From: a virus | Taxonomy: Duplodnaviria; Heunggongvirae; Uroviricota; Caudoviricetes | Reading direction: 5' to 3' (one strand) | DNA length: 6,945 bases | IMG/VR virus record: IMGVR_UViG_2778261688_000008 | Location: 1 to 6,945 of that record | In this document: piece by piece, positions 4,180 to 6,945 of the stretch | How positions within the stretch are numbered: position 1 is the stretch's first letter | Layout: each line of letters opens with the position of its first letter | Program-made: the position numbers and the translations under genes | Notes under the pieces: generated by a model | Database searches by the model: none | What the model saw: the letters and a program-made list of their open reading frames with translations, nothing else | What the model was told of the DNA's origin: nothing

Positions 4180-5670
4180 TTAATTTGACCTGTAAACATC
4201 AAAGTAATAGCTACCTCTTGTATTTGGCTCTGCACGCAAGGTGTAGTTTCTTAGATTAATCCTTTCATCAGATAAAATTGTAGTATATTTTGATGCATCA
4301 AAACCAGACTCAAACTCCTTTAATGGTATCACGTTATATACCACATTACTGTCAAGGCAAGTAGCCAGCGTGTTGAATTTAAATGGCACCTTTACGATAA
4401 TTAATGTTTTGTTGTTGTTGTGAACACTCTGGCAGTCATAATTATCTCTAAGGAATAAGTTTTCCACCTTATTTCTATCTGCATTAATTGAAGCAGAGAA
4501 AATGGACACAAATGTTAATATAGTGAATGATGCAGTGGCATTAATTTTTCCGGCAAAGCTATAGAATGACGCAAATATCAAAGCAAACATAGGAATTGAT
4601 GGGTATGCATACCTGGCCAGTTTGTAAGGTGCAAAATAAATTGATAATATAACAAATAGCGATGTGGATAAAACAATCCAAATGGAAAACAGACTATGCC
4701 TACATCCGCTGTATGTTTTGTAAATTAAATACAACAACCCCAATATGGCTATTAAATATATAAATGGCAATGAAATTGAGATATCATGGAAAACCTTAAA
4801 CGAAGAGGCTATGTTTTCCTTAAATGAAAACACCTTTCCAACTGCCTCGGTAGTTCTATAGTTTATATTGAAATATCTTGGGTAAATTATAAATGAAAAT
4901 GAAATAACTAAAATAATAAATAATAAGATCTTTTTTAACGCGTTGTGGCCGCATATGGATCTATGATTAAGCAAAATAAGCAAAGATACTGGCAAAATAT
5001 AAAATACAGAAAAATAGCCAGTTAAAAATGTAACGGAAGTTACTGCAGCATATTTAACAAGCTCCTTACGTTGTATGTCAGTAGTATCAAATACCAATAA
5101 CGTATAGTACGTAAAGATTACAAACATCATTTCTTGGAATTGATAAGGCCTAAGAAATGTGGTATTAGATATCGCAAAACACGAAGTGTATGCTATAAAT
5201 GCGCAAATTATTGAAGGTGTAATATTGCCAGTTAACTTATGCACCAGTTTTACACAAAAGTAAAATGAAATGCACATGAAAATAATGTTCATCTGCGCAA
5301 GCCATACAACAATGTTGGATATGTTCGAGTCCTTAAGTGGTGTCATCCATAGTCGCAAAAGGCTATAGTATATATTGCTATGAGGCAGGTCTCTATTGTT
5401 AACCCATAATTTACCAACATCATTAATGGCATCTAAAATACCACCATTAACAACATACATTTCCCTTCTTATAGCATCACCAGTAGCGCCAATAAAACCA
5501 TCACCAATGGTAGAGAAACCTATTGACTTATATGAGGATAATATAATTGACAATGATTCATCAACGTGCAATCCTGATTTAATAGAAATATAGTACTCTC
5601 TCATAAAGATGAGTAACGCCATGCAAACTACAAACACAATAGTGTTATTAATTCTTATGCCTCTAAACAT
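4180..5670 (-). CDS. gtrC: Type-specific O-antigen glucosyltransferase (GtrC-class), polytopic inner-membrane protein with C-terminal periplasmic domain
   Basis: 496-aa ORF directly downstream of gtrB, with its ATG at 5668-5670 overlapping the gtrB stop by 8 nt and an AGGA Shine-Dalgarno just upstream. About 9-10 hydrophobic helix-length segments (e.g. [49 protein letters not shown]) are followed by a roughly 100-aa hydrophilic C-terminal domain. The DNA is markedly AT-rich compared with gtrA/gtrB. Position and topology fit the variable third gene of gtr operons; the serotype specificity cannot be assigned from sequence alone. Confidence 0.8.
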
Positions 5671-6586
5671 TTTTCCTACCCTTCAGTACATAACGCGGAC
5701 GGTTTTTTACTTCCACGTAAATCCTTCCAATATACTCACCAAGCACGCCTATCCCGATAAGCTGCACACCACCCAGAAATAAAATCGATACCAATAGAGA
5801 AGGGTAGCCGCGCACTGGGTTACCAAATGCCAAGGTATCAAGAATCATCCACGCTCCGTACAGGAACGAAGCACCGGCAACGAACAGACCAATATAAGTC
5901 CACATGCGAAGAGGGAAGGTTGAAAAGCTGGTGATTCCCTCTAGCGCCAAGTTCCACAGTTTCCAGCCATTGAATTTTGTGCTTCCGGCAACTCGCTCTG
6001 CGCGGGCATATTCAACCACATCAGTTCTTCCGCCTACCCAGCTAAGCACACCCTTCATGAAGAGGTTACGCTCTGGAAGGAGCTTGATGTTTTCGACCAC
6101 CTCACGAGACATGAGTCGGAAATCGCCAACGTTCTCTTCAATCTTCGGGTTGCTGATTTTATTGTGGAGCTTGTAGAACCACTCGGCAGATTTACGTTTT
6201 AGTCGGCTGTCAGTTGATCGATCAGAGCGCTTAGCAAGAACCATATCCGCACCGGCCTGCCATTTCTCAATAAGGTGAGGAATGACCTCAATTGGATCCT
6301 GCAGGTCAACGTCAATCGGAATTACTGCCTCTCCGGTAGCATGATCAAGTCCAGCAAACAGAGCTGGTTCTTTCCCGAAATTACGCGTGAACGACAGCGG
6401 AACAACAAGCGGGTCGGCAACAGAAAGTGCGTTTATAATTGATTCTGTCGCGTCTTTGCTGCCGTCATTGATAAATACTATCTCGACTTCATGCTGCTGA
6501 AGCCCTTCAAACTCCCGCACGGTTTTATAGAAGATTGGAATTGCTTCCTCTTCATTGAAGACAGGAACGACCAGAGATATCTTCAT
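5663..6586 (-). CDS. gtrB: Bactoprenol (undecaprenyl-phosphate) glucosyltransferase, GT2 family
   Basis: 307-aa ORF with an N-terminal GT2 signature ([21 protein letters not shown] DxD-type motif) and two C-terminal transmembrane segments ([45 protein letters not shown]). The sequence matches the conserved GtrB / E. coli YfdH family as I recall it. Its start overlaps the gtrA stop (ATGA at 6583-6586). Confidence 0.93.
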
Positions 6587-6945
6587 TTCGCATCCCTAAA
6601 GACAATGAACTTTGAATAGACGAAACCGCACACCAAGCTGATGGCGGAGAAGGTGACAAGAGTGACAATTGGAGGAAGTGCACATCTATCAGCAGCCCAT
6701 CCAACAGTAGCACTCAGTGTTCCCATGAACCCGACATATAACATGTAGCGCATCGTTGTAGTCGATGCTTTGAATGTGAATTTTGCATTCGCGAAGAAGC
6801 TAAAGCTCACAGCCACAACGAAACCTGCGAAGTTTGCCAGAGCCTGATTGGTATGCGCGGCATAGATACATACACCAAAAACCACCCAGTGTATAAGGGT
6901 GTTCAGCACGCCAATAGAGGTGTACTTTGCAAATAGTTTTAACAT
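6583..6945 (-). CDS. gtrA: GtrA-family flippase for undecaprenyl-phosphate glucose (small 4-TM membrane protein)
   Basis: 120-aa ORF with four hydrophobic segments; the sequence [26 protein letters not shown]... matches the conserved Shigella/E. coli GtrA (YfdG) as I recall it. The ATG is the last three bases of the window (6943-6945 on the - strand), so the promoter is outside the window. It is first in the gtrA-gtrB-gtrC order. Confidence 0.93.

Follow-up and report, generated by a model that had tools for sequence, protein, structure and literature searches.

The window, i.e. the whole stretch of 6,945 nucleotides that was analysed, contains three co-directional and overlapping ORFs on the minus strand (positions 4180-6945). 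The preliminary description had presented them as a complete gtrABC cassette; all three ORFs were confirmed at the positions given there, and GtrA and GtrB were verified by family matches. gtrA (6583-6945) encodes a small membrane protein of 120 aa, the proposed flippase of undecaprenyl-phosphate-glucose (Und-P-Glc), and gtrB (5663-6586) a GT2 bactoprenol-phosphate glucosyltransferase of 307 aa. The gene in the gtrC position (4180-5670) encodes a polytopic protein of 496 aa, a predicted GT-C-fold glycosyltransferase of an uncharacterised family, and its GC content is low, 32.8%. The gtrA/gtrB overlap is 4 nt (ATGA) and the gtrB/gtrC overlap 8 nt (ATGTTTAG), with AGGA located 5 nt ahead of the ATG of gtrC. 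As the window ends exactly on the gtrA start codon, which is its last triplet, the cassette is complete as a coding sequence and the window does not include the promoter. The gene-level features of a gtr system are present: gtrA is the first gene, gtrB the second, the third encodes a polytopic protein with a predicted GT-C fold, and the genes are arranged operon-like beside tail and tailspike genes. As read from the sequence, the locus is an intact prophage-type gtrA-gtrB-gtrC cassette for a side-branch sugar of the O-antigen, an ordinary kind of system.

GtrA was matched by PF04138 (E 3e-13) and phrog_2224, 'GtrA-like O-antigen conversion' (E 3e-70), and its amino acid identity was 97.5% with K-12 YfdG, 91% with the GtrA of SfI/SfV and 82% with the P22-type protein. 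In the case of GtrB, matches with PF00535 (E 2e-29) and the GtrB PHROGs (E 6e-179) were obtained, and the identities with SfI, SfV, K-12 YfdH, HF4s and P22-type GtrB were 88-94%. Sliding identity profiles indicated that gtrB is a mosaic, with recombination junctions near 6546 and near 5946-6045 at the least. The donor sugar of Gtr systems is set by GtrB. Because the GtrB of the window is near-identical to the Und-P-Glc-making enzymes of Shigella, K-12 and the P22 type, glucose is the presumed donor.

No significant BLASTP or profile match was found between the 496-aa protein and GtrI, GtrII, GtrIV, GtrV, YfdI, the P22-type GtrC, the product of the third gene in the cassette of E. coli 042 or the GtrC of the HF4s (DUF6056) type. 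The comparison with GtrX, GtrIc and the Salmonella GtrC families encoded on the chromosome was indirect, through their absence from the protein-database search. The protein had zero matches in Pfam, NCBIfam or PHROGs. PF14264 (Glucos_trans_II), which was matched by GtrII, P22-type and E. coli G3 proteins with E values of 1e-30 to 1e-33, did not match it at E ≤ 0.01, and the hhalign probability with the P22-type GtrC was just 17% over a partial stretch. PF19528 (DUF6056), matched by the HF4s GtrC with E 2.5e-49, was likewise without a match (hhalign probability 1.1%). A tblastn search of 50,697 phage records gave no match, the IMG/VR close-relative scan revealed no copy of the third gene, and a literature search by the protein's accession numbers gave no match. 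The database copies are all labelled 'hypothetical protein'.

The view that this GtrC could not be placed among the named enzymes was therefore borne out by the BLASTP and profile comparisons and by tblastn. Its identity was, as the preliminary description had anticipated for a divergent enzyme, far below 40% with every characterised GtrC-type enzyme obtained; the named members around it were all 'hypothetical protein', and a characterised enzyme with more than 95% identity was not found. The divergence of GtrC enzymes is a known rule (PMC7685785, PMC7198725), so the low similarity is no surprise. By its sequence relationships the putative specificity enzyme is part of a large uncharacterised family.

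A confident predicted structure model was obtained for the 496-aa protein, and the predicted fold gave high-Z matches to GT-C glycosyltransferases only. The residues D37, E38, D84, D94, N99, Y101, Y102 and R106 are conserved and are all situated within the loop of approximately 90 residues following TM1; the four acidic ones, Asp37, Glu38, D84 and D94, are invariant (loop 30-118). The model is thus that of a GT-C fold with a first extracytoplasmic loop bearing conserved acidic residues, and D37 and E38 are the putative catalytic residues. The C-terminal alpha/beta domain comprises only about 85 residues. PF03901 (GT22) was weakly matched by 8 of the 29 relatives, with the best E value of 1e-6, while the 496-aa protein itself stayed below the Pfam threshold. 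The family profile gave nothing meaningful against the solved structures, the best match being a chemokine receptor with E 1.7. The sequence identity with ALG12/ALG9 (GT22), PMT, STT3/AglB/PglB, ArnT and AftA/AftB was only 8-12%, and STT3 and PMT are much larger proteins.

The third gene was detected at 99% identity in Enterobacter kobei and E. cloacae, and among complete E. coli genomes only 2 of 5,426 were carriers. In Rahnella, Erwinia and other E. coli, homologues with 30-58% identity were found, all of them in the order gtrA-gtrB-X and mostly adjoining tailspikes. At the distant loci of Treponema, Helicobacter, Dysgonomonas and Bacteroidales, a full-length GtrB-like gene (35-44% identity) was adjoining in 19 of 43 cases. 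The family amounts to about 2,800 clusters at 50% identity. This GtrC is present at 99% in both genera and, within E. coli, alongside an O-antigen gene cluster that is rare, which does not point to any one acceptor epitope. A more far-reaching reading was considered nearly, although not quite, an even chance: that this is a large GT-C family outside Pfam, NCBIfam and PHROGs, closest to ALG12, whose serotype-converting linkages in Enterobacterales have never been determined, and that the cassette provides a not yet described side-branch on an O-antigen of E. coli or Enterobacter and is transferred between genera while welded to the receptor-binding part of the very tailspike blocked by the modification.

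In comparison with the gtr clusters of Shigella flexneri SfI, SfII, SfIV and SfV, the gene order, the overlaps and the siting beside temperate-phage tail genes are all shared, GtrA and GtrB are 91% and 90% identical, and a low-GC type-specific gene is in common. The differences lie in the third protein, to which GtrI, GtrII, GtrIV and GtrV have no detectable similarity, in the tail module, which is of a different type from that of the Shigella phages, and in the absence of integrase and attP beside gtrA, where the related Enterobacter loci have a divergent S24-peptidase gene instead. The cryptic prophage CPS-53 of K-12 (yfdG-yfdH-yfdI) has likewise kept a gtr cassette in a decayed state, with GtrA 97.5% and GtrB 88% identical; however, its YfdI (443 aa) bears no relation to the 496-aa protein, and CPS-53 is sited at argW, whereas the present locus adjoins dacD. 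The P22-type gtrABC of Salmonella shares the system logic (GtrB 88%, GtrA 82% identical) and differs in its GtrC, the family of which, PF14264, is unmatched by the 496-aa protein. The gtr sets of Enterobacter cloacae O9, O10 and O11 belong to Enterobacter, the host genus of the copies with 99% identity. The gene after gtrB in these sets was described as unannotatable, with about 12 TM segments, the predicted GtrCs have 30-34% mutual identity, and in O10 Glc is located on the backbone beta-Man (PMC7198725). The mutual identity of the O9, O10 and O11 proteins is in the range found within the family of the 496-aa protein, to which they might belong, as compared by description only.

The tailspike gene (1658-4135, plus strand) is convergent with gtrC and encodes a protein of 825 aa with a Tail_spike_N adaptor and a beta-helix (PF18668, E 3.5e-26; weak PF13229). 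Over residues 154-823 the tailspike shares 56% identity with a protein of Enterobacter phage EspM4VN. The C-terminal part of the tailspike, about residues 154-825 (window 2117-4135), is co-inherited with gtrCBA. The block 2117-6945 was 95-97% identical across loci in which the tailspikes, of 941, 680 or 644 aa, bear other N-termini; because it is shared behind differing N-termini, the receptor-binding part and gtrCBA travel as one block. A perfect hairpin with a 14-bp stem and a 7-nt loop is situated between the convergent genes (4139-4173). Its folding energy was -26.1 kcal/mol on the plus and -25.6 kcal/mol on the minus strand (z -4.85 and -5.79, respectively), and equally good folds appeared in 0 of 200 shuffles. 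No clear U-tract was present and the hairpin went unflagged in the terminator scan; it probably ends or stabilises transcripts in both directions. Positions 1-1657 (plus strand) are occupied by the prophage's tail and baseplate genes, encoding a 251-aa baseplate-like, a 78-aa and a 218-aa Gp10_C tail-fibre-like protein with PHROG and Pfam matches; this region is 99% identical to and colinear with a myovirus-type tail module (L014).

The locus is very likely a prophage-borne three-component system that modifies the O-antigen outside the cytoplasm, in line with the general Gtr mechanism (PMC7685785, PMC11127046). GtrB, a GT2 enzyme at the cytoplasmic face, would convert UDP-glucose to undecaprenyl-phosphate-glucose, and GtrA would flip the lipid-linked sugar to the periplasmic face. 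The 496-aa enzyme of predicted GT-C fold would then use Asp37-Glu38 of its first periplasmic loop to transfer glucose to a single, specific sugar residue of the O-antigen during its synthesis. The resulting side-branch may alter the serotype and make the O-antigen harder to recognise for the neighbouring co-inherited tailspike. The O-antigen as the acceptor, superinfection exclusion and expression of the cassette are presumed in this scheme.

A sugar other than glucose, e.g. galactose or GlcNAc as in the gtr-like systems of other genera, appears improbable as the donor. Known three-component systems add galactose or pentofuranoses (PMC11127046) and the sequence of the third protein shows no relationship to the GtrCs known to be glucosyl-specific, but the donor follows from GtrB, and the GtrB of the window is 88-94% identical to those making Und-P-Glc. 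It is still less probable that the third gene encodes another kind of O-antigen-modifying membrane protein, such as a protein resembling a polymerase or a ligase, or an acyltransferase similar to the 'GtrC' of BTP1. 'GtrC' is a name given by position, the 496-aa protein has no Pfam assignment, and the gtrC product of Salmonella BTP1 is described as affecting O-antigen composition and length, not as simply adding glucose (PMC4413052). Against this, the high-Z fold matches of the predicted structure, the acidic residues of the first loop and the GtrB-like neighbours kept across phyla all point to a glycosyltransferase, and the acyltransferase and Wzy/WaaL families were all unmatched.

The third alternative, a silent relic whose genes are intact through recent acquisition and which is unexpressed or acceptor-less in E. 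coli and has no phenotype, is unlikely but carries much more weight than the other two. The whole window was 100% identical to two draft contigs (L029 and L031), and positions 4100-6945 were 100% identical in E. coli D9 and D4. In every context seen, the E. coli element is an ISEc52-disrupted prophage remnant as opposed to a demonstrably inducible lysogen. In L029 the IS begins 125 bp left of the window, within the next baseplate gene. In D9 and D4 it cuts the 251-aa gene, D9 differing from the window over the first 243 bases, where it has ISEc52; in addition, an ISEc52 precedes gtrA by 75 bp in both, and the segment as a whole has been inverted. The data support this inversion; a 'CAT' target duplication at the pre-inversion junction was not established, the reconstruction being off by 4 nt. 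The divergent upstream S24-peptidase gene is degenerate in E. coli, and a simple sigma-70 scan of the upstream region gave no convincing site, promoter and terminator matches being at chance level. The O-antigen flippase gene wzx of D9, 98% identical to the 'O116-family' wzx, is annotated as frameshifted, and if the frameshift is real, D9 has no acceptor. The wzy type of D9 is rare (8 genomes, 6 of which are without this gtrC), and no structure matching D9 was found in the E. coli O-antigen review. In contrast, at least 24 contigs, and Enterobacter as well, have the three ORFs at full length and in identical or near-identical form, gtrABC was spared in two independent IS configurations in which tail genes were lost to IS erosion, and cryptic prophages commonly retain gtr cassettes, e.g. 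yfdGHI of CPS-53.

If the cassette is active, the O-antigen side-branch would constitute a serological and phage-receptor variant in E. coli and the Enterobacter cloacae complex, and such a variant would escape the standard O-genotyping based on wzx and wzy. A linkage assigned to one member would be the first functional anchor for a widespread unannotated GT-C family, which extends to Treponema, Helicobacter and Bacteroidales. The tailspike receptor-binding domain together with gtrABC would be a compact case of a phage 'key' and 'lock changer' as an exchangeable module. The established picture of Gtr operation is unchanged by these results.

For Salmonella gtr operons, a Dam/OxyR phase-variation region has been described (PMC2909390). 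No such region is apparent in the 75 bp that precede gtrA in L029, where GATC occurs once; in the Enterobacter-type loci, the upstream DNA contains a LexA box and two GATC sites.

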